Assembly: GCA_017431755.1 (NCBI GenBank)
Contig: JAFRKM010000089.1
Coordinates: 1 to 36,914, forward strand
Reading direction: 5' to 3'
Source: Clostridia bacterium
GTDB lineage: Bacteria; Bacillota; Clostridia; Oscillospirales; Acutalibacteraceae
DNA: 36,914 nt
Shown here: positions 11,040 through 36,914 of the stretch, one piece after another
How the letters are laid out: every line of letters begins with the position of its first letter
Position numbering within the stretch: position 1 is the stretch's first letter
The notes under the pieces: generated by a model
What the model was told of the DNA's origin: nothing
The model's database searches: none
Seen by the model: the letters and a program-made list of their open reading frames with translations, nothing else
Made by a program: the position numbers and the translations under genes

Positions 11040-11058
11040 AAAATATAATTAAAAAGAT

Positions 11059-11240: not shown

Positions 11241-11310
11241 GCAAAAAAAAACATTTCGTGAGAAAATAAACATTATAAATAGTTATGGTTAGGAGGAGGA
11301 AATAATTTTT

Positions 11311-12522
11311 ATGAATAAGATAAAAAATTTTTTCTATAAGCTAAGTAAAAACATTTTGTTTGTAACTATCATATTTGCTACAGTAATTTTAACTGTGTAT
11401 ACCATTACTGAAGCTATAGACAGTTCTTCTACAAATAGCAGTACTAATAATAGTAAAACTTCAGACGGTAATGGGTCTGCACAAAATAATCTTGAGGATA
11501 CTGAGATAGACAAAATTGTGGAAGATTTGAAAGTTTCTGGCAATATTGACAATATACTGGAAAAACTTGATGAAATTATTTACCGTGCGCAACTTTCCGG
11601 TAATTCTAAACTTCAAGAATATGCTACAAATATGAAGAAAAAATATGAACTTCAAAAAGAATTAGACAGTGTAAATGGTTTAATAAGTGCCATGAAAAAG
11701 AAGAACTCTTCTATTGCAGATGTAGATACCCAAGTTACTAAAATTCTTTCCGTTTCTACTATAGTGGAAGATTTACGTGGTGCAGTTTCAGATGAGTGCC
11801 TTTTTATACTGGAATCTTTAGATGAAGAAAAAGTGAAAAATTTGCAAGAGCTTATGAGTGAAGTTGAAACTGTTTTTGATTTAAAAGATATTTCCTCCTT
11901 TACTGTTCAACAAAGAAGTCTTTTGGATATTTTATTTTTAAGTAAACTTATAGAAGATGATATGATTGATAACGAAAGACTTGATTTAGCTAAAAATACA
12001 ATTTCTGTTGCAATTACGATACTTGAATCTTATGAAAAACAAAATTATATTCCAGCCGAGTACACTAAGTTAGTTGATGACTCAGACGATTTTTCAAAAA
12101 CCGGAAACAAGGCATTTTCTGTGTTACCAGAGCAGGTTGTATTTTTGGGTGGATACTTTACAATGAAACATGCTCCTATTATGTACGATGGACATATTTT
12201 AGTTGCTGTTGAGGATTTATATCAATATATAGATTCAGATATAGAATATATGTATAATAACGCGACAATGGTTATTACATCTCCTGGTAAGACTTTAGAA
12301 ATTGAAAGTGGTAAAAATCAAGCGTATTTAAATGATGAGCCAAGGAATATTCCTGTTCCGATTCTTAATTATAATGATGTTATTTATATGTCAGCAGAGT
12401 TTTTTGCCGAATGTAATGATATATCTTATAAATATGTTGCGGATAGTGAGTTTTTAGTTCTTTATTATAATCTTGTACAACTTAAAAATCCTTCTGTTCC
12501 AAATCAAATTCATAAAGATTAA
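11311..12522 (+). CDS. Membrane-anchored protein with C-terminal copper-amine-oxidase-N-like (stalk) domain
   Basis: RBS aggaggagg. N-terminal TM helix (ILFVTIIFATVILTVYTI), an S/N-rich linker and a long helical region. The C-terminal ~110 aa (MYDGHILVAVEDLYQYI...MVITSPGKTLEIESGKNQAYLNDEPRNIPVPILNYNDVIYMSAEFFAE) resembles the Clostridia 'copper amine oxidase N-terminal' domain. Confidence 0.6.
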   Translation: MNKIKNFFYKLSKNILFVTIIFATVILTVYTITEAIDSSSTNSSTNNSKTSDGNGSAQNNLEDTEIDKIVEDLKVSGNIDNILEKLDEIIYRAQLSGNSKLQEYATNMKKKYELQKELDSVNGLISAMKKKNSSIADVDTQVTKILSVSTIVEDLRGAVSDECLFILESLDEEKVKNLQELMSEVETVFDLKDISSFTVQQRSLLDILFLSKLIEDDMIDNERLDLAKNTISVAITILESYEKQNYIPAEYTKLVDDSDDFSKTGNKAFSVLPEQVVFLGGYFTMKHAPIMYDGHILVAVEDLYQYIDSDIEYMYNNATMVITSPGKTLEIESGKNQAYLNDEPRNIPVPILNYNDVIYMSAEFFAECNDISYKYVADSEFLVLYYNLVQLKNPSVPNQIHKD

Positions 12523-12541: not shown

Positions 12542-13510
12542 ATGGCTAAATATACTATAATTGCCGATATAGGTAAAGGATTAATCAGTTTGCTAAGAGA
12601 TAAACTTGTTCCTGATGTTGTTGATAAAGCAGAAAGTATAGGAATTTGCGATCCAAAAGAACGTGGTGATTATATTGTAGGGATTCATCCGTACGATATA
12701 AAAGAAGATACTAGTGGTCGTGGACAAGATCCTGTACCTATGGCTGATGGGACTGTGGCTGACCCGCCAGCAATGATGGAGCTTTATTATGTGATTTCTG
12801 TAAATAGTAAAGCTGAGTTAGAATCTAAAGCACTAGACGAAGCTAAAATTATTGGAAAGATAATCCAGGTTTTTAAAGATAATCCAACTATTCCTGCAAG
12901 ATATATGCCAAGCAATGTTGGTGCACCGATAGAAACTGTTCCGGTTTCTATGCTTCCGCTTAATATGGAAGAAAAAGTTAAAGTTTGGACTATGTTTGGT
13001 GAATCATATAAATTATCTGTGTTTTACGTTATTGGACCAATAGCAATAGATTCTGAAAAAATGCATAAACCCAAAAAGAGAGTTGAAACTATTCATTTGG
13101 ATAGCCATCAATATAAGCATAAAAAAGTTCTTGAATTTGCAACTTTTATTAAAGAAGAAGATATTGATGATGAATATACTAGTCGACCTGATGAGGACGA
13201 AGATGAAGATGAAGACAGCTTTGGGGACGATAGTTTTGGTGATGATGAAGATAGTTTCGGAGAAAGTGATGAAACAAGTAATGAAGACGGCATGGGTGGA
13301 GACGAAGAAATGAATGAAGATGAAGATATGGGTGATAGTGAAGAAACCAGTAGCGATAATGATGATTTTTCCTATGACGAAGAATTAGCTAATGAAGATT
13401 TAGATGAAGATTCAGATAAAAGCTATGATGAAGAAGAGTTACCTGCGGATGAAGAAACTAGTGAAGGCGAAGGTGATACTGAAGAAATAACCTTTAAATC
13501 AGGGGAATAA
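12542..13510 (+). CDS. DUF4255 (Pvc16/Afp16 N-terminal, tail-terminator/cap-like) protein with ~118-aa poly-acidic C-terminal tail
   Basis: The N-terminal ~180 aa follow the DUF4255 pattern as I remember it (I..I...L..LL...LVP, PPAMMELYYVISV, ALDEAKIIGKIIQVFKDNPTIP, V.VSMLPLNMEEKVKVWTMFGESYKLSVFYVIGPIAID). The tail at 13154-13507 is D/E-rich. RBS ggagg lies upstream. Confidence 0.75.
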   Translation: MAKYTIIADIGKGLISLLRDKLVPDVVDKAESIGICDPKERGDYIVGIHPYDIKEDTSGRGQDPVPMADGTVADPPAMMELYYVISVNSKAELESKALDEAKIIGKIIQVFKDNPTIPARYMPSNVGAPIETVPVSMLPLNMEEKVKVWTMFGESYKLSVFYVIGPIAIDSEKMHKPKKRVETIHLDSHQYKHKKVLEFATFIKEEDIDDEYTSRPDEDEDEDEDSFGDDSFGDDEDSFGESDETSNEDGMGGDEEMNEDEDMGDSEETSSDNDDFSYDEELANEDLDEDSDKSYDEEELPADEETSEGEGDTEEITFKSGE

Positions 13511-13534
13511 TTTAAATTTTAGGAGAAAAAAACA

Positions 13535-14443
13535 ATGGGAGTAACTGATATTTTTAAAAACAGCAATGAAAAGAAGCTTATGGATAGATTCATGGAAGTG
13601 GATGTTGATAAAATAAATGATGAAATGAATATTTATAGTCAATACGAACGCATGAGGCAAACTTGGAGCTATGAAGGAAAAAGTGGTTTATACCATAAAA
13701 TGAAAAAAGGTGAAGATATTAGGGATGATATTGACAATATTAAAAAAGATAAAGGTTACCATATTATTTTTACGAAAGAAATATATAAGCGATATATCAA
13801 TTATTTAAATTATTTTAAAGAAAATTATTCAAAAAAAGGTAGATCTGATAGTTTTAATGAATATGAAAAAAATTTTAAAGTTTTTGTAAATTCTGGAAGC
13901 CTTTTTTTGAAAGATTTTAAAGTTTACAAAAATTATTTGGAATTTGTTTTAAAAAATAAAAATGTTACACAAAAGGAACAGATGGGCATTATTAGGTTAA
14001 TTTCGAATATAAAATCACAATTAAAGAATATTGATACTAGTATAAAAAAATTAGAAGAAATAATATTGAAAAGTGATTTAGAATTAAACACAAATAAGGA
14101 CTATTATTTGAAGATAGAAGAAGTGCAAAACTGGCTGTATGGAGAAAATAATTTTTATAACAAAGGTCTTCAAAAAATTTTTAATGACTACAAAGATATT
14201 TATGATTTAATAATGAAATGTAATAAAGACAAATTTTTAGCTTGTGTTTATAAGTATATAAAAAACAAAAAACTGAAATCATTAGAGCAAGAGCTTAGGT
14301 GTATACCTGTGAATAAGATTGAGCCATTAGTAAAAATAACAGTAGAAATGTTTGGTAGGGGTAATAGATATGAAAAAAAATTTGTAGAATTAATGGATGT
14401 TTTAAATAATGATTTAACCCCTAAGTTGGTGAATCTTAAATAA
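13535..14443 (+). CDS. Hypothetical cytoplasmic K/Y/N-rich helical protein
   Basis: RBS aggag 8 nt upstream and 24-nt spacing from the previous gene. 302 open codons in AT-rich DNA. No TM segment and no recognisable motif. Confidence 0.6.
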   Translation: MGVTDIFKNSNEKKLMDRFMEVDVDKINDEMNIYSQYERMRQTWSYEGKSGLYHKMKKGEDIRDDIDNIKKDKGYHIIFTKEIYKRYINYLNYFKENYSKKGRSDSFNEYEKNFKVFVNSGSLFLKDFKVYKNYLEFVLKNKNVTQKEQMGIIRLISNIKSQLKNIDTSIKKLEEIILKSDLELNTNKDYYLKIEEVQNWLYGENNFYNKGLQKIFNDYKDIYDLIMKCNKDKFLACVYKYIKNKKLKSLEQELRCIPVNKIEPLVKITVEMFGRGNRYEKKFVELMDVLNNDLTPKLVNLK

Positions 14444-14481
14444 TATTAGGTATTATATATATTTAAAAGGTGGGTTAGAGT

Positions 14482-15270
14482 ATGCGTGTAATTCATAGGG
14501 CAGCGCTGGTGTTTATGCTTAAAGATATTTATTCTAAAATGCCAATTACAAATGCTGTTATTTTGTGTAACGGCAAGCAAAATCCGTATACAAGAAAAAA
14601 AGACGGGTATTATGTTTTTTCTAATCTTTATCCTATGGATTATGAAATAAGCATTAGTGCCAAAGGATATATCGATCTTAATTTTAATGTTACTTTGCGA
14701 GAAAATGAAACGCAGGTGCATAATTATGATATGTCTTATAGTGTGGATAATGAAAGTCTAACTCATTTAACAAAGTTTGAGATAACTGTTTCTCATAAAA
14801 AAGAAAGGTTAAAAGATACGGAAGTAAAACTTGTGCTTAAAAACGAAGCTAAATTTATGAAAGTTATAGAAGCAGCACAGGCCGGCACAGATGAATTAAA
14901 ACTTAATTTAGATATGATGCCATCGCTTATTGGTCAAAATTATATTTATGAATTTAAAAAGCAAAAAAATGAATTTTTTATTTGGGGATATGATAATGAA
15001 AAGAAAGTGTATACTCTTAAAAATCCTCTTGAAAACGATATAGAACCTGGTGGAAAAGTCTATCCATTTTGGAATTTAAAAACAGATTCTTTAGGTAGAA
15101 TTACAATGCCGATTATTAGCCAGTTTATGACGGAAAGTAATGTTGATTTTGAAATTATTGCACCGGATGGACTTTCCTCTAAATTTTCGGCAGACCTTAC
15201 TAGTTTGTCAGAGTCAGATAAGGTTATTTATTTAAAAGCAGGCCTTAGAAAAAAAGCTAATAAAAATTAA
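14482..15270 (+). CDS. Hypothetical protein with N-terminal carboxypeptidase-regulatory-like beta-sandwich
   Basis: RBS aaggtggg. ITNAVILCNG...KKDGYYVFSNLYPMDYEISISAKGYIDLNFNVTL fits the CarboxypepD_reg-like pattern. The rest is unrecognised. Confidence 0.55.
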   Translation: MRVIHRAALVFMLKDIYSKMPITNAVILCNGKQNPYTRKKDGYYVFSNLYPMDYEISISAKGYIDLNFNVTLRENETQVHNYDMSYSVDNESLTHLTKFEITVSHKKERLKDTEVKLVLKNEAKFMKVIEAAQAGTDELKLNLDMMPSLIGQNYIYEFKKQKNEFFIWGYDNEKKVYTLKNPLENDIEPGGKVYPFWNLKTDSLGRITMPIISQFMTESNVDFEIIAPDGLSSKFSADLTSLSESDKVIYLKAGLRKKANKN

Positions 15271-15292
15271 TTAAAAAGGGAGCAAAAAAGTT

Positions 15293-15664
15293 ATGGGAAT
15301 TTTGGTTGGAATGGGTGCACAGTGTATGTGTACAATGGGATTAACACCCGCACCGCTTATGATTTTGCCTCAAAAGAAAGCTTTTGCAGAAAATAAACCT
15401 ATTGCCACAATTCAAGATAACAAACCTATGGTTAATATTTTGCCTTTTGGGATGTGTAAATCCCTAGGCAATCCCGGTGTTAAACCGCCTGTTATGCCAC
15501 AAGCACCGTGTATTCCTAATACTGCTGCACCATGGATGCCAGGATCTCCAACAGTTCTTGTTGGTAATGTGCCAGCGCTTAATAATAGTTGCAAACTTAT
15601 TTGCAATTACGGCGGAGTGATTTCTATTATGAATCCCGGAATAACTAAAGTTATGGTAAAATAA
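15293..15664 (+). CDS. DUF4280 (PAAR-like) domain protein, stand-alone
   Basis: Conserved Cys/Pro/Gly pattern: GAQCMCTMGLTPAPLMILP, ATIQDNKPMVNILPFGMC, PCIPNTAAPWMPGSPTVLVGNVPALNNSCKLICNYGGVISI. RBS agggag. Locally higher G+C. Confidence 0.85.
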   Translation: MGILVGMGAQCMCTMGLTPAPLMILPQKKAFAENKPIATIQDNKPMVNILPFGMCKSLGNPGVKPPVMPQAPCIPNTAAPWMPGSPTVLVGNVPALNNSCKLICNYGGVISIMNPGITKVMVK

Positions 15665-15683
15665 TTTTTTAAAGGAATATATT

Positions 15684-17753
15684 ATGAATAAAATTTTAAA
15701 AAATTTTTTTTCAAAAAAAATGATATTTGAATCCTATGAAAGTTACAAAGACTACTTGATTGATGAAATGAATGTGGTTTTTTTAACTTTGGATTATTAT
15801 TTGGAAGCAGATAAAAAGAAAAATTTTGAAAATTTTAAAAATGATGCTTTAAATGCTATTGCAAAAGCAAATTTTTATGTAAAATCAAGATTGGAATGTT
15901 CTAAAGAAGATTTTTTTGCAGGAAAATATATTAAAGAGACTTTTATTTTTTCAGACCTTGAATGGTTTTGTTTAATGGTGGTTTTAATTAAACGTTTTAG
16001 TCCATTGAATCTTAAAAAATATTCCGATATTTTAGGCGGAGATAGCTTTGATTTTACTTATGAAGATTTAATCAAAATATATTTTTTTAAAAAAGAAATT
16101 TACGACATTGAAAATTTTTATGATATAATGGTGTGCCTAAAAGAAAAACTCAGTTCTCTTTGTTTTAAAGAAGGTGAACTGGAGATTGACGACTATATTT
16201 TTAAAAGTATTGTTGGAAATTCTATAGATAATTTTGATAAGAAAAATTTTTCTTATTTTAAGGTGCCTGAGGTTGAAAAAAAACTTATAATTAGAGAGGA
16301 TTTAGCCCGTAGATTTGCAGATTTTTCAAATGATTTTTCGGGTAATGAAAATATTTTATATTTTTTGTATGGAGAAAAAGGTATAGGTAAAAAAACACTG
16401 GCAAAGCGAATTTGTGAAATTCTTAAAAAAGGGCTTTTAGAAGTAAATCTGGCTGGATTTAAAGATATGAACAAAGATAATTACAACAATTTAATGTCTG
16501 CTATGCGCTTTGCCCTTTGTAATAAATTTTATATTTCTTTTTGTGGCTGCGATAAATTTGAGAAAGAAGTTCTAGATTATTACAAAAGTTTTATACTAAA
16601 CGTTGCTACAAAGTATTCAAAGATAGTTTTTGTTATATCAGAAAATAAATTTGACTTAAAAGAAAGCTTTTCTTGCGGAAAATGTTTAAGTGTAGAGGTT
16701 GAAGATTTAAGTTTAGAAGAAAGTTTTAAAATATGGGAAAACGCTTTTTCTAATTTAAATATTGATAAAACTGTAGATGTAAATGAAATTTCTAATAAAT
16801 TTGAATTTACTCCTTTGCAGATAATAAATACATGTGTAGATGCGGAAAATATTAGAGCTTGGAAGAAAACGGATACTATTAGCAAAGAAATTATATGTAA
16901 ATGTGCATATGAACAGGTAGCGGATAGAATATCCGATAAAGCTATACTTATTAAGAAAAAACATACGTGGGACGAGCTTGTTCTGCCGGAGGAACAAAAG
17001 AAGCTGATTATTCGTGCTTGTAATCAAATAAAATACAAAAATATAGTTTATGATAAATGGGGAATGGACAAAAAAGTATTATACGGCAGAGGCCTTAGCA
17101 TGCTGTTTTCCGGGCCTTCAGGTACAGGTAAAACTATGGCAGCTCAGGTTGTGGCAAATGAACTTGGGCTTGAAATATACAGAGTTGACCTTTCTAAAGT
17201 TGTTTCTAAATACATAGGAGAAACAGAGAAAAATTTAGGAGAAATATTTGAAAGTGCGAAAAAAAGTAATGTAATACTCCTTTTTGATGAAACGGACGCT
17301 ATTTTTGGTAAAAGAACAGAAGTTAAGGATTCACACGACAAAAATGCCAACGTGGAAACTTCTTATCTTCTTCAAAAAATGGAAGAATACAATGGAGTTA
17401 CAATTATGACCACAAACTTTATTGGAAATATTGATAAAGCATTTTTCAGAAGAATAAATTATGTAGTGCATTTTACGCTTCCAGATGCAAAGCTTCGAAA
17501 AGAAATATGGCAAAAAATGTATCCGAAAGAAACGCCTATCTCAGAAGACGTTGATTTTGATTTTCTTGCTAGACATTTTGAAGTTTCGGGGGGTAGTATA
17601 AAAAATATTGTTATTACATCCAGTTTTATTGCGGCTTCCGAATCAAACGAAGTAAAAATGGAACATATAATAAAAAGCCTTGAGTACGAAATAAAAAAAC
17701 AAGGAAAAATAGTTTCTAAATCTGATTTTGGCGAATATGGATATTTGCTTTAA
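15684..17753 (+). CDS. Double AAA+ ATPase, Pvc15/Afp15-like (degenerate D1, canonical D2)
   Basis: D2 has Walker A GPSGTGKT (17112-17135), Walker B ILLFDETD, VTIMTTN, and RR in FFRRINYVVHF. D1 has a Walker-A-like GEKGIGKKT (16371-16397) and no clear hhhhDE. The CDC48-like D2 context KYIGETEKNLGEIF is present. Confidence 0.9.
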   Translation: MNKILKNFFSKKMIFESYESYKDYLIDEMNVVFLTLDYYLEADKKKNFENFKNDALNAIAKANFYVKSRLECSKEDFFAGKYIKETFIFSDLEWFCLMVVLIKRFSPLNLKKYSDILGGDSFDFTYEDLIKIYFFKKEIYDIENFYDIMVCLKEKLSSLCFKEGELEIDDYIFKSIVGNSIDNFDKKNFSYFKVPEVEKKLIIREDLARRFADFSNDFSGNENILYFLYGEKGIGKKTLAKRICEILKKGLLEVNLAGFKDMNKDNYNNLMSAMRFALCNKFYISFCGCDKFEKEVLDYYKSFILNVATKYSKIVFVISENKFDLKESFSCGKCLSVEVEDLSLEESFKIWENAFSNLNIDKTVDVNEISNKFEFTPLQIINTCVDAENIRAWKKTDTISKEIICKCAYEQVADRISDKAILIKKKHTWDELVLPEEQKKLIIRACNQIKYKNIVYDKWGMDKKVLYGRGLSMLFSGPSGTGKTMAAQVVANELGLEIYRVDLSKVVSKYIGETEKNLGEIFESAKKSNVILLFDETDAIFGKRTEVKDSHDKNANVETSYLLQKMEEYNGVTIMTTNFIGNIDKAFFRRINYVVHFTLPDAKLRKEIWQKMYPKETPISEDVDFDFLARHFEVSGGSIKNIVITSSFIAASESNEVKMEHIIKSLEYEIKKQGKIVSKSDFGEYGYLL

Positions 17754-18734: not shown

Positions 18735-19502
18735 TTACATGTTGTTTTCTTTGTCATCGTAAGATTGTTTTATTAAATCCAAAACATAATCCAGCATATC
18801 TTCGTCGTTTAAATAAACTACGTAGTCTCCATTACCCCAATGACCTATTTTTGAGATATCTTTAGCGAATTTGTAAGGGTCTTTAAGTTTTTCACTTGGT
18901 AAATTAATGTATATTTTTAATGTGCTTTTTTGTATTTCAATATCGCATATATTTGTACTAGTTTTAAAAGCAATATCTAGTGTTTTAGGTTCAATACTAA
19001 TGTTGCCAAAAAGTAATATTCTATCTCTTAGCAGTACATAAAGTCTTTTTGTGGTTTCTGAACCGTGAGAAATATGATCTTGCTCTGTGTATTGGACAGC
19101 GCCTGAATTTTGGAATTCCTCCGCCGTGTATTCATCTATGATTTTGTGCCCTTCCGGAGCAATTTTTTTAAGCTTGTCGGTTGTGCTGCTTATTGAAGCA
19201 ATACTATACAAAATTTCGTAAGCATCTTCGGCTGTAATATTATAGAATTCTCTTATTCGCGGTTTGCCGTCAAAGGTTTCTATTGCACGTAAACCAGGAT
19301 TTAATTTATCAATTAAATTATGTACGTCTTTGTCCCTGAGTCTGCCCTCGACTTCATACACGCAGTACGCCCTGAACGCAAACGGCAAGCACTCGCTTTT
19401 ATTTAATTGCCTTAATCTGTATTCTAAATTATCAGCGTAGCCAATTTTTACGTATTCCGGAAATGACGGGTTGGTTAAAACATAAATTACACCTTTTTTC
19501 AT
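18735..19502 (-). CDS. T5orf172 (GIY-YIG superfamily) domain protein with C-terminal DUF5655-like domain
   Basis: N-terminus GVIYVLTNPSFPEYVKIGYADNLEYRLRQLNKSECLPFAFRAYCVYEV matches the T5orf172/MUG113 pattern. C-terminus ...IAFKTSTNICDIEIQKSTLKIYINL...IGHWGNGDYVVYLNDEDMLDYVLDLIKQSY matches the DUF5655-type module. ATG at 19502 is 8 nt after aaggag; the ORF track GTG at 19511 overlaps that RBS. Confidence 0.75.
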   Translation of the reverse strand: MKKGVIYVLTNPSFPEYVKIGYADNLEYRLRQLNKSECLPFAFRAYCVYEVEGRLRDKDVHNLIDKLNPGLRAIETFDGKPRIREFYNITAEDAYEILYSIASISSTTDKLKKIAPEGHKIIDEYTAEEFQNSGAVQYTEQDHISHGSETTKRLYVLLRDRILLFGNISIEPKTLDIAFKTSTNICDIEIQKSTLKIYINLPSEKLKDPYKFAKDISKIGHWGNGDYVVYLNDEDMLDYVLDLIKQSYDDKENNM

Positions 19503-19543
19503 GTAAATCACTCCTTATTTACAGAAAACTTCTATTAAAAAAA

Positions 19544-19619
19544 TGGAGCTACTGGGCGGACTCGAACCGCCGACCTGCTGATTACGAATCAGCTGCTCTA
19601 CCAACTGAGCCACAGTAGC
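19544..19619 (-). tRNA. tRNA-Thr (anticodon CGU), CCA encoded
   Basis: Reverse complement GCTACTGTGGCTCAGTTGGTAGAGCAGCTGATTCGTAATCAGCAGGTCGGCGGTTCGAGTCCGCCCAGTAGCTCCA folds into a full cloverleaf: 7-bp acceptor stem, GCTC/GAGC D-stem, GCTGA/TCAGC anticodon stem with loop TTCGTAA, and GGCGG/CCGCC T-stem with TTCGAGT. Confidence 0.95.
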
Positions 19620-27125: not shown

Positions 27126-30100
27126 ATGGATAAAGAACTAAAAAAAAATTATAAAGGTGGAAAAATAAGCGAAATTGTTATTTCGTCTGTAATGCCGTTT
27201 TTAAATAAACTGAAAAAAAATGGAATTAAAAAGATTCTTGGTGAGTTTTTGCCTGGAATAGATATTAATAATTTTGTGCTTGAAAAAATAAAAAATCAGC
27301 TATCCAAAAGGCGTGCTGTGGGACTTGGTAAGGGCCTTGGAAGAGTTTATATTCAGTATCGTTTTGATGGTATACAAGTAGAACCATGTGGTGTTTTACG
27401 ATTTCTTATTAAAAAAATAACGATTACTGATGATCAGATTTTAAAATCTTTTGATGATATTTTAGACCAAATTGAAGAAAAGTATATAAAAAATAGCGAT
27501 TATATTATTAGTGAAATAGATGATATAATATTTAATCTTTCCGAGACGGAAATTTATAAACCGAAAACCTCAGAGCAGAAGAATCTGTATGATTTAGCAG
27601 TGTTTATACTTGCTAATTATTATGAATCTTTCGAAGAAAAGCCAGCATGGCTAACCGGTGCTTTTGAAAATATAAAAAAGGGTAAGTTTATTAAAAAATG
27701 GATTGAATTTTTAGCTGAGTATATTTCTGAACTGATTTCAGAGGTAAGCGAAAACATATTTATTAATTTTAAAGTTACTTTTGATTCTTACCTTATTAGG
27801 ACATTTCTTAATAAAAAAACTAATCGTGGACAAATTTCTAAAATGATTAAACTTTTTAATATAGATGTTAAAAAAATAATTTATAATTTTGCAAAAAGTT
27901 ATGTAAGCCCAAGTTTTATAAGAGGTGCAAGTGAAGTTATTTTAGAAATGTTTTCAAACTTTTTAAGTGATGAAAATAGTATTTTAGAAGAAAGTGCAAA
28001 TGATGAAAACAAGCCATTTAATTTTACTGTGTCCCTTGGGAATGATGCTCTTAGCGAAAGAAGATTCAGATGGTACACTAAATATTTGGAGAAAAATAGC
28101 TATTTAGAGTATTCATACAATAAAGATTTTAATAACAGTATAAAATTAAATGTAAACCCAAGTAAAAGTTTAAAACTTATTCCTGTTTTGAACTTTGGTT
28201 TGGTGTCTAAATTTAAAGTAAAGCAATTTTTTAAATATTCTTGCACTATTAAAAATTTAAATCCAGGAACATTATATTATAGAGTGATTTCAGAAAATAA
28301 TGATAGCACAGAGGTTTTTAAACTTAAAATTAAAAGCTTTTCAAATAGATCAAAATTTCTGATTTTATCAGATTCTCAAGGTATGGTAAAAAGCGATTAT
28401 GATGTGTTTTTAGAAATGCTTGAATCAGCGGTGAAAAACACGCCGGATAGTGACTTTATAGTTCATTTGGGAGATTTTGTTGATGATGGAAATAATGAAG
28501 AATTTTGGCGCTGGATTTTAGATTCTAAGGTTTGGGCTGAAAATGCAGTTATTCCTTTAAGCGGTAATCATGAAGCGCGTGTTAATGCTTTATCCTACAA
28601 AAACGGAATAGAAAATTCTGTGTTATCACACTTTAATTTTATGGATTTCCCAAATCAAAATACGGATTCAGGGGCATATTATTCATTTGTTTATAATAAT
28701 ATTACTTTTATAGTTTTAAATACAAATATGGGTAGGGAAGGAACGCTTGATTCCAGGCAATATAGATGGGCGTTAAATACTGCAAAAAAAGCAAAGACTC
28801 CTTGGAAAATACTTCTTACTCATAAAACTCCGTATTCCAATGGTCCGCATCATAATGACCCAGATGTTAAAGCTATAGGCAAACAAATTATAAATTTAGC
28901 TTATGAGGGGAAAATAGATTTGGTTTTTGGTGGGCACGACCATGTTTACGTAAGAACTCCAATGTTGGCTTATGATAAGAAAATTTTTTCAGAAAAAACA
29001 AAAAATGAAGAAGGAAAAACTGTGATTAAAACTTATTTTAACCCAGAAGGAACAGTGTATATAACCCCGGGTACTTCTGGTGTTAAGAATTATATGCAGA
29101 AATTTCCTGTTTCTTTTCCATATGATGCTATGATTAAACTAAACGGCCCTGTTTATTCTGAGGTGGAAGTTGATGATAATGTACTGAAATTTAGCTCTTT
29201 TTTGTGGGATAAAAAAAGTAAAAATTTTAAAAAAATTGATTTTTTAAGTTTGAAAAAATGTGATCTAGATTTAACGCATATTGATGGGTTTAAAGTTTCT
29301 AGGTTTATAAATAATATTCCTGATTATCCTTGGCGAGATATTAGTTTTTCTGTGAATAGAGTAGCCAAGCTTTACGAAAGTTTGGATTATTCCGAAAAGG
29401 TAAAAATAAATAATTACTCTTATCTTTTAAAATCTTTAAAAAATAATGAAAACTACAAAAAAATAATAAAAAGCGAAATAAGAACAGTAAAAAACAAAAA
29501 AGAGTTTATAAAAGCACTTAGTAACAAAAAAGTTGGGACAATAATTGCCGATTGCGAAGAAATTAAGTTTGAAAGTAAGCTAGTGATTGATAGGCCTCTA
29601 TGTATACGTGGAGAAGCAAAATTTACGCATGTAAAATTTATTTTACAAGAAAACGCTTTCGTAATTTTTGCAGACAGCATTTGTATAGACAATATAAGAA
29701 AACCATTTTCTTTGTGTAGTTCTTTAGACTGTTTTGAAATGCACAGTAAAAGTATTTTAATTTTAAATGATAATGTATCTGTTAATACTGGATATGGAAT
29801 AGGGTTTAAAGGATATGGTATAAATATAGTTGGTGAAAAAGTTGGAGTTTACCTTAATAGTTCAAGCTATAATATTACAAAAAATAGTTTTTTGCATTCT
29901 AGTTTTTATGACTCTAAAGTGGTGGTTACTTCCGGAAAGTATTTTTCATTAGGTAAAACCCCAACAATTAATATAGATGGTTATTTAAAAATTAAAGGTG
30001 GATTTATTAGAAATATAAAAGGGTCTTTTAATTCAAACATAACTATTGATGGAGGAATAATAGGAGTAAAAGATAAAAATGAATGTTTGATTCCACTTGA

Positions 30101-30242
30101 ATGCACAGGGTGTTTGAGTTTAGAATCCGGAAAAATTCGGGCAAACAGTAATGGTATTTCAGTTAAGACGGGTAAATGGCAGGAAAACAATTTAAAACCG
30201 CCTAAGTCTGTTGAAATAACAGGCGAAATTTGGTATACTTAA
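27126..30242 (+). CDS. Large multidomain calcineurin-like metallophosphoesterase (purple-acid-phosphatase-like core)
   Basis: FN3-like PAP N-domain (NLNPGTLYYRV). Metallophosphoesterase motifs ILSDSQG, HLGDFVDDG, SGNHE, LLTHKTPY, GGHDHVY. The N-terminal ~330 aa are unrecognised. The C-terminal ~300 aa are repetitive and beta-rich (possibly a beta-helix). Confidence 0.8.
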   Translation: MDKELKKNYKGGKISEIVISSVMPFLNKLKKNGIKKILGEFLPGIDINNFVLEKIKNQLSKRRAVGLGKGLGRVYIQYRFDGIQVEPCGVLRFLIKKITITDDQILKSFDDILDQIEEKYIKNSDYIISEIDDIIFNLSETEIYKPKTSEQKNLYDLAVFILANYYESFEEKPAWLTGAFENIKKGKFIKKWIEFLAEYISELISEVSENIFINFKVTFDSYLIRTFLNKKTNRGQISKMIKLFNIDVKKIIYNFAKSYVSPSFIRGASEVILEMFSNFLSDENSILEESANDENKPFNFTVSLGNDALSERRFRWYTKYLEKNSYLEYSYNKDFNNSIKLNVNPSKSLKLIPVLNFGLVSKFKVKQFFKYSCTIKNLNPGTLYYRVISENNDSTEVFKLKIKSFSNRSKFLILSDSQGMVKSDYDVFLEMLESAVKNTPDSDFIVHLGDFVDDGNNEEFWRWILDSKVWAENAVIPLSGNHEARVNALSYKNGIENSVLSHFNFMDFPNQNTDSGAYYSFVYNNITFIVLNTNMGREGTLDSRQYRWALNTAKKAKTPWKILLTHKTPYSNGPHHNDPDVKAIGKQIINLAYEGKIDLVFGGHDHVYVRTPMLAYDKKIFSEKTKNEEGKTVIKTYFNPEGTVYITPGTSGVKNYMQKFPVSFPYDAMIKLNGPVYSEVEVDDNVLKFSSFLWDKKSKNFKKIDFLSLKKCDLDLTHIDGFKVSRFINNIPDYPWRDISFSVNRVAKLYESLDYSEKVKINNYSYLLKSLKNNENYKKIIKSEIRTVKNKKEFIKALSNKKVGTIIADCEEIKFESKLVIDRPLCIRGEAKFTHVKFILQENAFVIFADSICIDNIRKPFSLCSSLDCFEMHSKSILILNDNVSVNTGYGIGFKGYGINIVGEKVGVYLNSSSYNITKNSFLHSSFYDSKVVVTSGKYFSLGKTPTINIDGYLKIKGGFIRNIKGSFNSNITIDGGIIGVKDKNECLIPLECTGCLSLESGKIRANSNGISVKTGKWQENNLKPPKSVEITGEIWYT

Positions 30243-30271: not shown

Positions 30272-31213
30272 ATGAATGAATATAAAAGATTAAATACAAA
30301 AGACAAGGCAGTGCTCAAAGTGTGTAAAGTTGTAAAAAAATCAACTGGTAAAAGCCTGAAATGGACGTTTATTTATAGTGGAATATTTTTGGCTTTTGTT
30401 GTTGGTGTTTTTATGTTTTATAAATTTGTAGATAGTAATTATAAAAATAACGGTGAAGTAGAAATAGAAGGTATAAATTCACAATCTAAGATGAATTCTA
30501 AAGATGTTTCTGATTTAGATGAACTTTCTAAAAATGAACTTGAAAGAGAATCAGGAAAAATAGAAAAATTAGAATCAGAACTAAATAAAGATGAAACCGA
30601 AGGAGATGGATCATCAGGATTTAAAAAATCTTATAATTTTTCCGATTGGAATGCTTCTTGTGATTTTGAAATGTTAGTAATTAATAAAGATAACCCAATT
30701 TCAGAAAGTTTGAAAATTAAAACGAAAAATTGCAAAGGTAAAGAAGTAGCAATTCAATGTTCAGCTGATCTTGAAAATATGATAGAAGATGCAAAAAAAG
30801 ATGGGATTAATCTTTGGATTTCTTCGGGATATAGGGATATAGCGCTGCAGAAAAAACTTTTTGACAGACAAGTGGAAAGGCAAAAAAACAAAGAGGTAAT
30901 TTCTCAAGCAGAAGCCGAAGAACGTGCGGCCACAGTAGTTGCAAAGCCATATACAAGTGAACATAATACGGGTTTAGCGGTGGATTTTAATGGTGTGGAA
31001 GATAATTTTTATACAACCAAAGAGTACAAGTGGCTTATAAATAATGCTCATAAATATGGTTTTATTGAAAGATATCAGGTGAAATGGCAAAATGTTACAG
31101 GAGTTATTTATGAACCTTGGCATTTCAGATATGTAGGCAAAAAATATGCGCCACTTATTAAAGACAGTGGTTTATGTTTAGAAAAATATGTTGCAGAAAA
31201 ATTGATGAAATAA
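30272..31213 (+). CDS. D-alanyl-D-alanine carboxypeptidase, VanY/M15B family, membrane-anchored
   Basis: TM anchor WTFIYSGIFLAFVVGVFMFY. Zn-ligand motifs SGYRD, SEHNTGLAVDF, EPWHFRYVG. ATG at 30272 is 8 nt after ggaggg; the ORF track GTG at 30254 is in frame. Confidence 0.85.
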   Translation: MNEYKRLNTKDKAVLKVCKVVKKSTGKSLKWTFIYSGIFLAFVVGVFMFYKFVDSNYKNNGEVEIEGINSQSKMNSKDVSDLDELSKNELERESGKIEKLESELNKDETEGDGSSGFKKSYNFSDWNASCDFEMLVINKDNPISESLKIKTKNCKGKEVAIQCSADLENMIEDAKKDGINLWISSGYRDIALQKKLFDRQVERQKNKEVISQAEAEERAATVVAKPYTSEHNTGLAVDFNGVEDNFYTTKEYKWLINNAHKYGFIERYQVKWQNVTGVIYEPWHFRYVGKKYAPLIKDSGLCLEKYVAEKLMK

Positions 31214-31236
31214 AAATTTTAAAGGAGAAATATAAA

Positions 31237-32673
31237 GTGGATAAAGTTAGAACGCGTTTTGCACCAAGCCCCACCGGATATATGCATATTGGAAATTTAA
31301 GAACAGCGCTTTATGAATATTTAATAGCTAAATCAAACGGTGGCGATTTTATCTTAAGAATTGAAGATACTGATAAAGCCAGATATGTTGAAGGGGCAGA
31401 GAAAGTAATATATAATACTTTAAAATCAGTGGGATTAAAACATGATGAAGGCCCAGATATTGGTGGAAATTATGGCCCGTATGTTCAAAGTGAGCGTAAG
31501 GGTGATTATTTAACATATGCTAAAAAGCTTGTGGAAAGTGGCGCTGCTTATTATTGCTTTTGTGATAAAGAAGAAAACAGCGGTGAACATTTGGAGTCGG
31601 GTCATAAAGATAAATGCAGAGACTTAAGCTCTGAGGAAATTAAAAAAAATCTAGAACTAAATATTCCTTATACAATAAGACAAAAAATGCCGGTAGAAGG
31701 TGTTACAACGTTTAAAGATGTGGTTTTTGGAGAAGTTGTGGTAGAAAATAAAGAACTTGAAGATCAGATTTTAATTAAAAGTGATGGTTTTCCAACTTAT
31801 AATTTTGCAAATGTGGTTGACGACCATGAAATGTGTATAACACACGTTGTAAGGGGATGTGAATATCTTTCTTCTACGCCAAAATATAATCTTTTGTATA
31901 AAGCGCTAGGCTGGAAAATTCCTGTTTATGTTCATTTACCGCTTATTATGGGCAAAGATGAAAATGGTACGGTATCTAAGCTTTCTAAGCGCCATGGTGC
32001 GGTCAGTTTTGAAGATTTGGTAAAAATGGGTTATCTTCCGGAGGCGATTATTAATTACATAGCGTTTTTAGGGTGGTGCCCGGATAGTAATAAAGAAATT
32101 TTTAGTTTAACGGAACTTGTTAAAGAATTTTCGGCGCAAAGAATTAGCAAATCCCCTGCAGTTTTTGATTATAAAAAATTGGATTGGTACAATAGCGAAT
32201 ATTTAAAATTAAAAAGCGAAGAAGATTTTGAAAATCTTGCCCTGCCATATATAAATTTAGTAGTTGATAGTAGTGTTTGTGATACTTCTAAAATAGCAAA
32301 ACTTTTAAAAAATAGAATTTCTAAACTTAGTGAAATTCCTGATATGATAGATTTTTTTGCCCGTGTGGCGAAATATGATTTAAGTCTTTATACAAATAAA
32401 AAAAGCAAAACAAACTCAGAAATTTCTAAATCAGTTTTGATTGATATTAAAACAGAACTTGAAAAACTAAGAAGTTGGGATTATGATTCTTTGCATGAGT
32501 TGTTTATGGATTATGCAAAAGAAAAAGAATTAAAAAACGGCACTGTTATGTGGCCTGTGAGAATAGCAATTTCGGGTAAACAAATGACACCCGGAGGAGC
32601 TATTGAAATATTAGAAATACTTGGTAAAGAAGAGTCTTTAAAACGCATAGAAAACGCCATTAATTTGTTGTAG
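31237..32673 (+). CDS. gltX: Glutamate--tRNA ligase
   Basis: RFAPSPTGYMHIGNLRTA (HIGH motif), VSKLSKRHG (KMSKS motif), Cys cluster CFCDK...C. GTG at 31237 is 9 nt after aaggag; the ORF track ATG at 31174 would overlap the VanY gene. Confidence 0.95.
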   Translation: MDKVRTRFAPSPTGYMHIGNLRTALYEYLIAKSNGGDFILRIEDTDKARYVEGAEKVIYNTLKSVGLKHDEGPDIGGNYGPYVQSERKGDYLTYAKKLVESGAAYYCFCDKEENSGEHLESGHKDKCRDLSSEEIKKNLELNIPYTIRQKMPVEGVTTFKDVVFGEVVVENKELEDQILIKSDGFPTYNFANVVDDHEMCITHVVRGCEYLSSTPKYNLLYKALGWKIPVYVHLPLIMGKDENGTVSKLSKRHGAVSFEDLVKMGYLPEAIINYIAFLGWCPDSNKEIFSLTELVKEFSAQRISKSPAVFDYKKLDWYNSEYLKLKSEEDFENLALPYINLVVDSSVCDTSKIAKLLKNRISKLSEIPDMIDFFARVAKYDLSLYTNKKSKTNSEISKSVLIDIKTELEKLRSWDYDSLHELFMDYAKEKELKNGTVMWPVRIAISGKQMTPGGAIEILEILGKEESLKRIENAINLL

Positions 32674-34406: not shown

Positions 34407-34458
34407 TTAACATATATTTCCTAGAAATATTAAATATTTATATTTGGGGGCTGTATTT

Positions 34459-35457
34459 ATGAGAAAAAAAACAATGAAACTTTTTTTACCTATTTTTTTA
34501 ATGTTTGTGGCGTCAATATTTAGTTGTAAATGTGAAGATTTTGAAAAAAATGAATTTTCTTCAGGAGCTAAACATGTTTTAAATGAAAGAACTAGCCAAG
34601 GGGATTTTATTATAGATGAAAATGGGGATTTGACTAGTTATGAAGGATATGCCAAAGAGGTAAATATTCCGGAAGGAGTAGTAAAAATAAATTTTGGTGT
34701 ATTTTCAAACCATGATGAAATTGAAAATATAAATTTTCCAAAAAGTTTAAAAAGTATTGATGAGTGTTCTTTTAGTGAATGTGCAAATATAAAATCACTT
34801 GTTCTTCCGGATAATTTAGAAAAGATAGGACGTTTAGCTTTTCTAAATTGTAATAGTGTTTCTGAAATGCACATAGGCAAAAATTTGAATTTTGTTGATG
34901 AATTATTTGTTTGGGGTTGTATTAATTTAAGAAAAATTGATGTTAATCCTGAAAATAAATGTTATAAATCTTTAGATGGAATACTTTATAATAAAGACTT
35001 AACGGAACTTTGTGTTTGCCCGCAGAATTATGGCGAAAAAGTTATAATTCCGGATAGTGTAATAACATTGAAGGAAATGTCGTTTTTTGAGTGTAAAAAT
35101 TTAAAAGAAGTGGTTTTTGGTAAAAATATTCTGTATGTAAATGAACTTGCTTTTTCTGGTTGTAAAAATTTAAAATTTGTAAAGATGAATGATTTAGTTA
35201 AAAAAATTCGTGCAAATGTTTTTTTTGAATGCACTTCATTAGAAAATATTGTAATAAATGGATCAGTTACTTCATTAGAAAATATGGCTTTTTCTAATTG
35301 TAGCTCGCTTAAAGAAGTAATCTTTATGTCAAAAAATACTAAATTAGGAAATAAAATTTTTGTAGGATGTTCTGAGAATATAAAAATAAAAGCTCCAGCA
35401 GATTCTGAAATGCAAACGTATGCTTCTAAGCATGGTTATAAATTCGAAATTCTTTAA
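34459..35457 (+). CDS. BspA-type leucine-rich repeat (LRR_5) surface protein, probable lipoprotein
   Basis: Signal peptide ending ...VASIFSC. It is followed by about 10 repeats of the ~23-aa pattern (IP.GV..I...AF..C..L..I.). ATG at 34459 follows tggggg. Confidence 0.8.
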   Translation: MRKKTMKLFLPIFLMFVASIFSCKCEDFEKNEFSSGAKHVLNERTSQGDFIIDENGDLTSYEGYAKEVNIPEGVVKINFGVFSNHDEIENINFPKSLKSIDECSFSECANIKSLVLPDNLEKIGRLAFLNCNSVSEMHIGKNLNFVDELFVWGCINLRKIDVNPENKCYKSLDGILYNKDLTELCVCPQNYGEKVIIPDSVITLKEMSFFECKNLKEVVFGKNILYVNELAFSGCKNLKFVKMNDLVKKIRANVFFECTSLENIVINGSVTSLENMAFSNCSSLKEVIFMSKNTKLGNKIFVGCSENIKIKAPADSEMQTYASKHGYKFEIL

Positions 35458-35501: not shown

Positions 35502-35530
35502 TTTACATTTTTAAATACGATTGCTATAAT
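35502..35530 (+). promoter_or_regulatory. Near-consensus promoter (TTTACA-17 nt-TGcTATAAT) upstream of the nucleotide translocase gene
   Basis: tttaca at 35502-35507, 17-nt spacer, tataat at 35525-35530, preceded by tgc (extended -10). Confidence 0.5.
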
Positions 35531-35624
35531 AGTTCGGTAAGACTATTTTTAAATAGACTGTGAAAATGATTTTGAAATTTTCACAGGTCTATTAATTTGA
35601 GATCATGAAAGGATTGAAAGTTTT

Positions 35625-36914
35625 ATGAACGATGCACCCCCTGCGGGCTCTGCTAATCCTCCTGAGTTTAGCCGTCTTAGGTCAGCATTATTTCCCGTTC
35701 ACGGCTATGAAATGAAAAAATTCATTTCTATGAGTTTACTTATGTTTTTCATTTTATTTGTTTATACTATGGTAAAGGATCTTAAAAATTCACTTGTGCA
35801 ATATTATGCAGTTTTAGGGGGGCCGGAACTTCTTTCTCAGATTAAAGTTTTTTTTGTAATGCCAGCTGCATTTTTGCTTGTTATGCTTTATTCGTTTTTA
35901 ATTAATAAATTTGGGTTCAACAAAACGTTTTACATATTAATTTCATCGTTTTTAACTTTTTATGTAGTTTTTTTGTTAGTTTTATTTCCAAATAGATCAT
36001 ATATACACTTGGATGAAGCTACTGTTAGAGCAATGCAAGCTTCTTGGCCATCTTTTCTTCATTGGACAATTCCGTGTATCACGAACTGGTCTATTACATT
36101 ATTCTATGTTTTTTCAGAACTTTGGGGGACAATGGCAATTTCTTCACTTTTTTGGCAGTTTGCTTACAGAGCGACAATGAAAAGAGAGGTTAAAAGATTT
36201 TTTGGACTTTATGCGGTAATAGGAAATGTGGGAGTGTCATTATCTGGTTTCTTGCTTAATTATATTTCTACAACATGTAAAAAATTAAATCAGCCGCACG
36301 AATTATCTATCTATGTTTGTGTAATTTCTAGTATTTTATGTGGTTTGATTGCAATAGTACTTTTTTGGTATGTTAATCATTTTGTGCTTAAGGATCCAAG
36401 GTGTTTTGACGTAAGCCAAATTAAAGAAAAGAAGAAAAAAGAAAAAGTTGGGATAATGGACGGAATTAGGATTCTTTTTAAATCCCCGTATTTAATGTTA
36501 ATTGGTGCACTTGTTGTGTGCTATGGTGTTGCAATCAATTTCCTTGAAGTTATTTGGCAAGCATATATGAGAATACATTTTCCCGATCCAAATCAATATC
36601 TAAGTACAATGGGAAAACTTTCTATAACCACAGGTATTTTAACTATTTTAGCTGCTGTTATTGGGCAAAATATTATTAGAAAAACAAAGTGGAAGATAGG
36701 TGCTTTAATTCCAGCGTTAATTCTTGGAATATTTGGTAGTCTTTTCTTTGGAATTATTCTTTATGGAAATTATGTTTCTACAAAGATCTTTGGAATTAAT
36801 TTTGTCTTGCTGGCAGTTTGGCTTGGCCTTGCTATAGATGCACTTTCAAAAAGTGTAAAATACTGTTTGTTCGATGCTACAAAGAATATGGCATATCGTC
36901 CGCTTGATGCTGAA
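35625..36914 (+). CDS. TLC/NTT-family nucleotide (ATP/ADP-type) translocase, 3'-truncated by the window end
   Basis: I translated it by hand: 430 codons with no stop, running off the window, so it is absent from the ORF track. Strong matches to rickettsial/chlamydial Tlc signatures: FSELWGTMAISSLFWQFA, VKRFFGLYAVIGNVG, and VKYCLFDATKNMAYRPLD at the end. Multiple TM helices. Confidence 0.9.
   Translation, partial: MNDAPPAGSANPPEFSRLRSALFPVHGYEMKKFISMSLLMFFILFVYTMVKDLKNSLVQYYAVLGGPELLSQIKVFFVMPAAFLLVMLYSFLINKFGFNKTFYILISSFLTFYVVFLLVLFPNRSYIHLDEATVRAMQASWPSFLHWTIPCITNWSITLFYVFSELWGTMAISSLFWQFAYRATMKREVKRFFGLYAVIGNVGVSLSGFLLNYISTTCKKLNQPHELSIYVCVISSILCGLIAIVLFWYVNHFVLKDPRCFDVSQIKEKKKKEKVGIMDGIRILFKSPYLMLIGALVVCYGVAINFLEVIWQAYMRIHFPDPNQYLSTMGKLSITTGILTILAAVIGQNIIRKTKWKIGALIPALILGIFGSLFFGIILYGNYVSTKIFGINFVLLAVWLGLAIDALSKSVKYCLFDATKNMAYRPLDAE

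Follow-up and report, generated by a model that had tools for sequence, protein, structure and literature searches.

The stretch of DNA analysed here (the window, 36,914 nucleotides) ends inside a gene for a nucleotide transporter of the NTT/TLC family, whose 5' 430 codons of 510 occupy 35625..36914 on the forward strand. The gene product would be a 12-helix, MFS-fold nucleotide transporter (ATP:ADP antiporter, TC 2.A.12) that imports external ATP, probably derived from a host cell, in counter-exchange for internal ADP and phosphate; such import would be energy parasitism of the kind proposed for protist endosymbionts of the same clade. Taken jointly, we consider it likely that this is a clostridial NTT in a host from a small-genome clade, that it brings in host ATP against ADP and phosphate and that it goes back to an ancestral horizontal gain. 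NTT transporters are a molecular signature of energy parasitism and their report in Gram-positive gut Clostridia in 2023 came as a surprise. The novelty implied by the initial annotation is not supported: PMC10579323 reported the finding for the clade in 2023, and bioRxiv 10.1101/2025.07.29.667580 did so for symbionts of rumen ciliates in 2025. The gene is another member of an already described clostridial translocase lineage and the window's species is a separate species-level lineage. The window by itself opens no new question; it adds to the NTT-bearing clade one species-level lineage from ruminant-type gut metagenomes, with the translocase gene in a stable and conserved position beside the S10 operon and with a promoter-like site of its own.

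The translation of 35625-36914 (+) is stop-free over 430 codons and contains the motifs SELWGTMAISSLFWQFA, KRFFGLYAVIGNVG and KYCLFDATKNMAYRPLD, so that the uninterrupted frame and all the family motifs quoted at first reading were recovered. The gene is cut by the window end, and it was for this reason, as had been supposed, that the ORF track missed it (the last listed ORF stops at 35457). The Pfam TLC profile (PF03219) matches the window protein with 398.2 bits (E 7.4e-119; cut-off 21) over residues 13-430, corresponding to profile positions 6-427 of 491, which as a sequence match is far beyond chance. The NCBIfam profile for NTP/NDP exchange transporters, TIGR00769, gives 321.8 bits with the window fragment and does not reach its curated cut-off of 387.2. 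The full-length orthologue (P0001, 510 aa, 99% identical to the window protein) also stays just below that cut-off with 361.9 bits (E 5.6e-108, profile coverage 1-472), and these scores would mark a somewhat divergent subfamily rather than a non-member. Among ATP/ADP translocators in the PDB, the window fragment matches 9j3n with an E-value of 1e-80 and 9j3j with 2e-66; in a full-length phmmer comparison the values are 1.8e-91 for Chlamydia pneumoniae NTT1 (9j3n) and 8.5e-77 for the Arabidopsis plastid AtNTT1 (9j3j).

An AlphaFold (AF2) model of the transporter (pLDDT 82.6, pTM 0.85) has a predicted 12-helix MFS-type fold that can be superposed on the solved NTT structures, with TM-scores of 0.86/0.90 for 9j3n, 0.86/0.91 for 9j3l and 0.84/0.90 for 9j3m. 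Other MFS transporters compared with the model gave TM-scores of 0.46-0.57, normalised by query length. Structure superposition, Pfam and PDB sequence matches thus agree with the original assignment to the TLC/NTT type. The best solved match is C. pneumoniae NTT1/Npt1 (9j3n, 9j3o), found over residues 14-502; on its ATP-bound inward-open form the model superposes with an rmsd of 2.9 A. The two proteins have in common the N-terminal core motif F..LRS.L.P.H..E.KK as well as the charged residues described below, but they share only ~34% identity in the structural alignment, and the window's protein belongs to a Gram-positive clostridial host and has a putative function. AtNTT1 (AATP1; 9j3j, 9j3l, 9j3m) has the same fold (TM-score 0.84-0.91) at ~32% identity; unlike AtNTT1 the window protein lacks a transit peptide, and AtNTT1 supplies an organelle and not a parasite.

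Four charged intramembrane residues of AtNTT1, K155, E245, E385 and K527, are functionally important (PMC4256464). They align, with a single offset, to identical residues of the transporter, K74, E165, E308 and K448, the first three of which lie inside the window, while K448 lies beyond it and was read from the 99%-identical orthologue. Their equivalents are invariant in all 77 aligned NTTs of the clostridial clade and outgroups. Counter-exchange of external ATP against internal ADP and phosphate is the most likely function; we infer both the preference for ATP/ADP over other nucleotides and the direction of transport. The sequence of an NTT does not allow its substrate range to be predicted (PMC4256464), and it is possible, though unlikely, that the protein serves nucleotide rather than energy supply, importing several NTPs, dNTPs or NAD+ by exchange or by proton coupling. 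There is an equally small chance that it would resemble chlamydial Npt2, Rickettsia Tlc4/5 or Protochlamydia NTT2-4 in offsetting a lost nucleotide biosynthesis. Besides the poor readability of NTT substrates, this possibility draws on several relatives that have two diverged paralogues per genome (L009/L039 on one 418-kb contig, L008/L041 and L052/L058), as expected if functions were split between the copies. Against it, the closest solved structures and the best sequence matches are ATP/ADP exchangers, all four counter-exchange residues are kept, including the equivalent of K527 that is linked to triphosphate transport, and it is the copy beside the S10 operon that the subclade has in common.

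The host would be a low-GC member of the animal-gut small-genome ‘Acutalibacteraceae’ clade (Oscillospirales, Clostridia), whose genomes measure 0.86-1.4 Mb with 30-39% GC (PMC10579323); the window, with 30.4% GC, falls within that range. The best named matches of the window's GluRS are MAGs of Clostridia, Acutalibacteraceae, Ruminococcus and Oscillospiraceae, with 74% identity to proteins of ‘Acutalibacteraceae bacterium’ and ‘Clostridia bacterium’ MAGs, and the ribosomal proteins S8, L6 and S5 share 79-84% identity with their counterparts in L045, an Acutalibacteraceae MAG with an NTT gene of its own. The closest relatives are MAGs from goat duodenum and jejunum. RGIG2248 and RGIG2532, two goat MAGs that represent the nearest GTDB species, share 79% identity with the window's species in the NTT and ~91% in GluRS/GlnRS. 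These relatives are tied to the published clade (PMC10579323) by host and source, MGYG000004496 (L076) being the sole direct name match. The GluRS matches and the synteny with clostridial MAGs bear out the Clostridia-like host proposed at first reading. MreB, PBP2 and Rsb-type partner switching occur in chlamydial, rickettsial and Dependentiae lineages as well, and we considered whether the window could be DNA of one of these lineages; this was rejected on the GluRS, the clostridial synteny and the NTT tree.

Within the published clade the translocase is found in all but one genome, including MAGs from goat, cattle, sheep, deer and human, and its transcription was detected by RT-PCR in two endosymbionts (PMC10579323). 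The window's transporter groups in the same clade (bootstrap 100) as TlcC, the ‘Clostridia ATP/ADP translocase I’ of Ca. Paraimprobicoccus trichonymphae RsTa-C01 (PMC10579323), with ~52% identity, a similar length (both ~500-510 aa) and the same four charged residues. Like the clade of RsTa-C01, the window's genome is low in GC and has LRR_5 proteins and eCIS genes. The window's species forms a lineage distinct from that of RsTa-C01 and keeps mreBCD/PBP2 as well as class II fructose-bisphosphate aldolase (FBA), the latter of which RsTa-C01 lacks. A more distant member of the same clostridial NTT clade (46-48% identity to the window protein), likewise in an Acutalibacteraceae host genome, belongs to Ca. 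Vesiculincola pelomyxae (Eubacteriales bacterium SKADARSKE-1, L048). That clostridium, which lives as an endosymbiont in the amoeba Pelomyxa schiedti, retains ATP generation by acetate kinase and its NTT is considered supplementary (PMC10579272). The window, which carries eCIS-associated genes as well as the translocase, is also like MAG-71 of rumen ciliates as far as the description of MAG-71 goes: a small-genome, low-GC member of the Acutalibacteraceae with an ATP/ADP translocase and eCIS, the latter having been reported for most of the clade (bioRxiv 10.1101/2025.07.29.667580). A PHROGs scan of the ORFs neighbouring the eCIS genes in the window returned an AAA ATPase and nothing else.

A host-associated lifestyle had been suggested for the window's organism from the outset, and the literature of 2023-2025 (Takahashi et al. 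2023, ISME J, PMC10579323; bioRxiv 10.1101/2025.07.29.667580) proposes the same for the clade, whose members are described as putative parasites that draw energy from gut protists. We infer that the window's species is intracellular or attached to a host. Those endosymbionts of the clade that have been characterised are coccoid, and their glycolysis is fragmented (PMC10579323). In the window, the context genes listed by the initial annotation are all real, namely MreB/C/D, PBP2, VanY, YetF/DUF421 and a partner-switching pair of an HATPase_c_2 kinase and a STAS protein, and they are accompanied by alanine racemase (Alr), by surface-glycan genes (sugar transferase, DegT and the O-antigen-ligase-like Wzy_C) and by the metabolic genes FBA, MgsA and dUTPase. 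The latter three, within 37 kb, neither prove nor exclude the profile of an energy parasite. Given mreBCD/PBP2, Alr, VanY, the O-antigen-ligase-like gene and FBA, the window's species may be less reduced than the characterised endosymbionts, or not intracellular.

Its being extracellular altogether, as a walled rod that lives in the gut lumen or as an epibiont and takes up extracellular ATP or nucleotides, seems rather improbable to us; as doubtful is the corresponding source, be it lysed cells, host epithelium or an attached protist or bacterial partner. It would be in keeping with such a life that the window contains intact genes for mreBCD, PBP2, VanY, Alr, sugar transferase, DegT, Wzy_C and FBA, that a BspA-type LRR surface protein adjoins the transporter, and that free-living bacteria also carry NTT genes (PMC5381601). 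On the other side, all those members of the clostridial NTT clade that have been localised live inside a protist, and extracellular ATP is normally low in gut fluid. In the rumen, a member of the clade is enriched in the ciliate fractions (bioRxiv 10.1101/2025.07.29.667580). Because rod-shape, cell-wall and surface-glycan genes and part of glycolysis are kept, the window's species could also stand at a stage that is earlier than, or different from, that of the coccoid endosymbionts, as an extracellular or epibiotic gut clostridium that taps ATP or nucleotides while outside a host cytoplasm, that might attach by BspA-type LRR proteins and an eCIS, and in some relatives of which transporter specificity diversifies by swaps at the locus, a scenario to which we give little credence. 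The added value of the window is modest: machinery for rod shape and the cell wall is still encoded in a member that bears a translocase, and its relatives show allele swapping at the locus, both of which bear on how and when host dependence evolved in the clade.

As to the origin of the gene, a neighbour-joining tree of 77 NTTs (clostridial clade and outgroups, 100 bootstraps) recovered the clostridial NTTs as monophyletic in every replicate, and the window protein nests in the clostridial group spanned by Ca. Paraimprobicoccus trichonymphae (L050) and Ca. Vesiculincola pelomyxae (L048). Among the sequences of the tree, which also included chlamydial and verrucomicrobial NTTs, the clostridial clade was grouped with alphaproteobacterial (Caedibacter/Caedimonas) ones in 100/100 bootstraps, so the family would have entered Clostridia horizontally. 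A horizontal but ancient origin is supported: an ancestor of the clade would have gained the gene, the donor being a relative of alphaproteobacterial or chlamydial symbionts, and the gene would then have been inherited within the clade and, in some relatives, exchanged within it. Of the horizontal acquisition proposed by the initial annotation, the entry of the family into Clostridia is supported by the NTT tree; any suggestion of a recent date is not supported, because gene GC matches the genome and the gene order is kept. Eight other GTDB species have the same arrangement, VanY-GluRS-GlnRS-LRR-NTT-S10 operon. The body of the NTT gene has in three related species been swapped for alleles only 62-75% identical, between flanks of 85-99% nucleotide identity, which suggests that in some relatives the locus is a hot spot of recombination with ongoing diversification of transporter specificity. 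Between the window and the orthologous locus L005 nucleotide identity is 75-85% in the NTT and 83-87% in the flanks, a mild drop without sharp edges, and we do not claim a recent replacement in the window's species.

The start of the gene had been read as a recently recruited or foreign N-terminal extension, on the correct count of 33 G+C in its first 60 nt (20 codons), above the gene (32.8%) and the window (30.4%); patches of 60 nt with such G+C content number seven in all 36.9 kb, the gene start included. A recent arrival of the gene from a foreign source, with a GC-rich N-terminus newly recruited, is nevertheless very improbable. The GC excess lies in the first and second codon positions (0.60 and 0.65) and so in Pro/Ala/Gly codons, and position-3 GC of the gene outside its first 20 codons is 0.24, which like the GC of the gene fits the genome. 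The N-terminal motif MNDAxPxGSAxxPEFSRLRS recurs in homologues of only 64-85% identity, and from residue 14 onward the protein is family core, aligning with C. pneumoniae NTT1 from residue 8 onward, so that the N-terminus is longer than that of the chlamydial protein by at most ~6 residues. The synteny kept in eight species also speaks against recent arrival.

That the gene is a decaying pseudogene broken just past the window, a possibility left open by its final 80 codons lying outside, can be dismissed almost entirely, because four independent public metagenome contigs of the same species carry an uninterrupted 510-aa copy with a normal stop (6 nt mismatches in 1290, 99.5% nucleotide identity), with identical neighbours followed by the S10 ribosomal operon, and because the RBS and promoter-like site are conserved.

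In the window's species the transporter gene would be a stable part of the chromosome, with a promoter-like site and an RBS of its own, just 5' of the S10 ribosomal protein operon. Its upstream neighbour at 34444..35457 (+) encodes a BspA-type leucine-rich-repeat protein (Pfam LRR_5, E 1e-45); an LRR_5 gene precedes the NTT also in L005-L010, L013 and L025, with 41-65% identity, and LRR_5 proteins are among the families gained by the common ancestor of the clade (Table S13, PMC10579323). The upstream ORF is 337 aa long in the window and the gene call on the conspecific contigs 327 aa; an exact-sequence look-up of the 337-aa protein gave no match. Between the two genes, the sequence TTTACA-17 nt-TATAAT with a TG extended -10 (35502..35530, +; 11/12 matches in a consensus scan) is promoter-like by its match to the consensus, and the pair of hexamers is kept in the orthologous loci L005, L006, L010, L013 and L025. 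A Shine-Dalgarno-like GAAAGGA, read from the sequence, lies at 35607..35613 (+), 11 nt 5' of the ATG, and GAAAGGATT is invariant in 9/9 aligned orthologous upstream regions. We also considered a conserved regulatory RNA in the predicted 5' leader and rejected it, as an Rfam scan of the leader for riboswitches and known RNAs gave none at E<=1 and the hairpin found there is confined to the window and L005/L006, being absent in L007-L025. This 16-bp hairpin (35552..35593, +) lies in a lineage-specific insertion of ~46 nt. The predicted fold of 35535-35630 has an MFE of -21.1 kcal/mol (z -2.97; none of 200 shuffles was as stable), and the hairpin is the one element retained in the centroid structure (-16.5 kcal/mol).

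The stretch at 35625-36914 (+), which is cut by the window end, translates into 430 stop-free codons containing all three family motifs that the initial annotation had quoted. The gene was indeed missed by the ORF track: the mechanical list ends at 35457, because ORFs running off the window go unreported. The window protein matches Pfam PF03219 (TLC) over profile positions 6-427 of 491 (398 bits, E 7e-119; the cut-off is 21), and among solved structures it finds strong matches in two ATP/ADP translocators only, Chlamydia pneumoniae NTT1 (CpNTT1; 9j3n, E 1e-80) and Arabidopsis AtNTT1 (9j3j, E 2e-66). A full-length orthologue (P0001, 510 aa) aligns end-to-end with both, at E 1.8e-91 (residues 14-502) and E 8.5e-77 respectively; its score of 361.9 bits with NCBIfam TIGR00769 lies slightly below the curated cut-off of 387.2, so this clade departs somewhat from that model. 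A structure predicted with AlphaFold2 on an alignment of 23 sequences is helical nearly throughout (pLDDT 82.6, pTM 0.85) and gives TM-scores of 0.84-0.91 with ATP-bound CpNTT1 and ATP- or ADP/Pi-bound AtNTT1, and 0.46-0.57 at most, normalised by query length, with generic MFS transporters. Charged residues important for transport in AtNTT1, K155, E245, E385 and K527, the last being linked to triphosphate transport (PMC4256464), correspond to clostridial K74, E165, E308 and K448 (a single numbering offset of 84 was reported) and are invariant across 77/77 aligned NTTs; K74, E165 and E308 lie within the window portion.

Fold, residues and closest characterised relatives argue best for an MFS-fold antiporter that would take up external ATP and release internal ADP and phosphate. 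The main functional rival, a broader import of nucleotides or NAD, is plausible but in our view unlikely given these similarities, even with two points in its favour: NTT substrates are not predictable from sequence alone (PMC4256464), so that the sequence does not fix the substrate here, and in several relatives one genome holds two NTT paralogues that have diverged.

The genomic setting closely resembles a published one. Three clostridial endosymbionts of termite-gut flagellates have genomes of 1.0-1.3 Mb with 27-33% GC, lack net ATP generation and possess an ATP/ADP translocase (Takahashi et al. 2023, ISME J; PMC10579323). The "small genome clade" of Acutalibacteraceae unites these three with 23 MAGs recovered from goats, cattle, sheep, deer, a termite and humans (0.86-1.4 Mb except one of 1.9 Mb; 30-39% GC), and in it all but one genome encode the "Clostridia ATP/ADP translocase I" (PMC10579323). 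A subtype IIb eCIS is found in most genomes of a 41-genome clade, and a rumen-ciliate-associated Acutalibacteraceae MAG combines the translocase with an eCIS (2025 preprint, 10.1101/2025.07.29.667580). The window has 30.4% G+C with a steadily positive GC skew, a ruminant-gut type of source and an NTT of the clostridial clade, and it carries an eCIS-associated gene cluster (12542-17753, +) composed of a Pvc16_N-domain protein with an acidic D/E-rich C-terminal tail (12542-13510, +), a CarboxypepD_reg-like protein (14482-15270, +), a DUF4280/PAAR-like protein (15293-15664, +) and a 689-aa AAA ATPase (15684-17753, +); the window shows no gene for a sheath, tube or baseplate. Immediately 5' of the NTT lies a candidate BspA-type LRR_5 surface protein (34444-35457, +), fast-evolving with 41-65% identity among syntenic relatives, and the conserved block includes a 1038-aa protein with purple-acid-phosphatase-N and metallophosphatase domains (27126-30242, +). 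Both LRR_5 and metallophosphatase-type domains are on the published list of the clade's "eukaryotic-like" domains, and Table S13 of PMC10579323 includes LRR_5 with the families that the clade ancestor gained. Because of this point-by-point match we take the window to represent a further species-level member of this published kind; it was not found among GTDB representatives at species-level identity. The initial interpretation was largely right, while the novelty it implied was overstated, the clade having already been published.

The neighbouring genes that had been listed are all present. The window encodes dUTPase, MreB/C/D, PBP2, methylglyoxal synthase, HisRS, Dus, alanine racemase, an anti-sigma kinase (HATPase_c_2), a STAS antagonist, class II FBA, YetF/DUF421, a sugar transferase, DegT, Wzy_C, endonuclease IV, VanY, GluRS and GlnRS. 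Retention of mreBCD/PBP2, wall genes and FBA contrasts with the described endosymbionts, which are coccoid, and suggests the main ecological rival, that a still rod-shaped, walled bacterium takes up its substrate from outside the host cytoplasm. We find this reading improbable, somewhat more so than broader import. The closest named relatives of the window GluRS are MAGs labelled "Clostridia bacterium" and "Acutalibacteraceae bacterium" (74%), followed by Ruminococcus and Oscillospiraceae MAGs (64-65%).

Scanning the NTT alignment against GTDB species representatives yielded 145 relatives; the 80 best were retained. All of the top ~70 are gut MAGs (goat, deer, cattle, mouse, human and termite) of Clostridia, Eubacteriales, Oscillospiraceae, Ruminococcaceae or Acutalibacteraceae, the closest being the goat small-intestine MAGs RGIG2248 and RGIG2532 (NTT identity 79%). 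The complete order EndoIV-metallophosphatase-VanY-GluRS-GlnRS-LRR-NTT-S10 operon is kept in eight species, the two goat MAGs, which share 90-100% identity with the window lineage in aminoacyl-tRNA synthetases and sampled ribosomal proteins, and six others (L007-L010, L013, L025) with 73-97%. In a neighbour-joining tree (77 NTTs, 495 columns, Kimura distances, 100 bootstraps) the clostridial NTTs form one clade (100/100) which groups with alphaproteobacterial sequences from Caedibacter, Caedimonas and others (100/100); chlamydial and verrucomicrobial NTTs fall outside. The window protein and the two goat sequences group at 100/100 inside a 22-member subclade (100/100), in the region of the tree delimited by Ca. 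Paraimprobicoccus trichonymphae and Ca. Vesiculincola pelomyxae (JARLUB), protist endosymbionts verified by microscopy and assigned to Acutalibacteraceae. A monophyletic clostridial clade grouping with alphaproteobacteria supports the proposed horizontal origin, as an old event that would lie at the clade base, and the published work likewise inferred that the clade ancestor acquired the translocase horizontally, possibly from alphaproteobacteria (PMC10579323). Gene GC (32.8%) and third-position GC (0.24 outside the first 20 codons) match the genome and the synteny extends across species, so that recent transfer is essentially excluded. The paralogue pairs are L009/L039, L008/L041 and L052/L058; L009 and L039 share one 418-kb contig (CAMZEH010000001.1), and the members of the L009/L039 and L008/L041 pairs are 69-70% and 47% identical to the query.

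In three related GTDB species (L010, L013, L025) the flanks of the locus are 85-99% identical at the nucleotide level, identity falls abruptly to 60-74% from about codon 85 of the NTT to its stop (locus coordinates about 10250-11500) and recovers directly 3' of it. Between the three proteins identity is just 62-75%, and each shares 82-91% with NTTs that other genomes carry in different contexts, a pattern suggestive of allele replacement or gene conversion at this S10-adjacent locus. No comparably sharp mosaic was seen between the window species and L005, one of the two goat MAGs.

P0001 is 99% identical across all 430 window residues and is encoded on four conspecific ENA metagenome contigs (L001-L004) with the gene order of the window (Wzy_C, endonuclease IV, the 1038-aa metallophosphatase, VanY, GluRS, GlnRS, LRR protein, NTT), followed 3' by the S10-L3-L4-L23-L2... 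ribosomal operon; the window DNA differs from the contig copy at 6/1290 positions. With this near-identical full-length gene, a frameshift just beyond the window, the scenario named initially as a refutation, is very unlikely and a pseudogene can essentially be dismissed.

The 33 G+C counted in the first 60 nt are correct, and 60-nt patches this GC-rich are rare, with seven in the window. The excess is due to Pro, Ala and Gly residues, that is to codon positions 1 and 2 (GC 0.60, 0.65 and 0.40 by position). The N-terminal motif recurs in 64-85% identical homologues (MKDATPVGSANAPEFSRLRS, MKDANPAGSAKATEFSPLRS, MNDKQSAGSTQQPEFGRIRS, MNDAQPTGSAQKEFSPLRS) and the family core begins at residue 14, where EFSRLRSALFPVHGYEMKK aligns with PFGKLRSFLWPIHTHELKK of CpNTT1. 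These observations rule out the foreign N-terminal extension that had been suggested; the tail is ordinary and conserved, and is probably disordered (residues 1-9, pLDDT below 50).

Upstream of the gene a near-consensus promoter-like site, TTTACA-17-TATAAT with an extended-10 TG (35502-35530, +), is kept in five orthologous loci, and the ribosome-binding region GAAAGGATT is invariant in 9/9 aligned upstream regions. The predicted 5' leader contains a 16-bp hairpin (35552-35593, +; z -2.97) that matched no Rfam family and belongs to a 46-nt insertion limited to the window and the two closest goat MAGs; we regard it as a lineage-specific feature.

The GluRS ORF (31174-32673, +) is listed with 499 aa and overlaps the VanY end; its homologues have 475-492 aa and cover just 94-96% of the query, and the listed start probably adds about 20 codons too many. 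A T5orf172/GIY-YIG-like + DUF5655 protein (18735-19511, -) adjoins tRNA-Thr(CGT) (19544-19619, -) at one of the GC-rich patches and is possibly left over from a mobile element or defence system. L001 (about 13870-14250) and L002 differ by an indel of ~155 nt that falls between the genes for L23 and L2, where a 58-aa ORF without Pfam match is located; L2 starts at 14247 and 14092 respectively.
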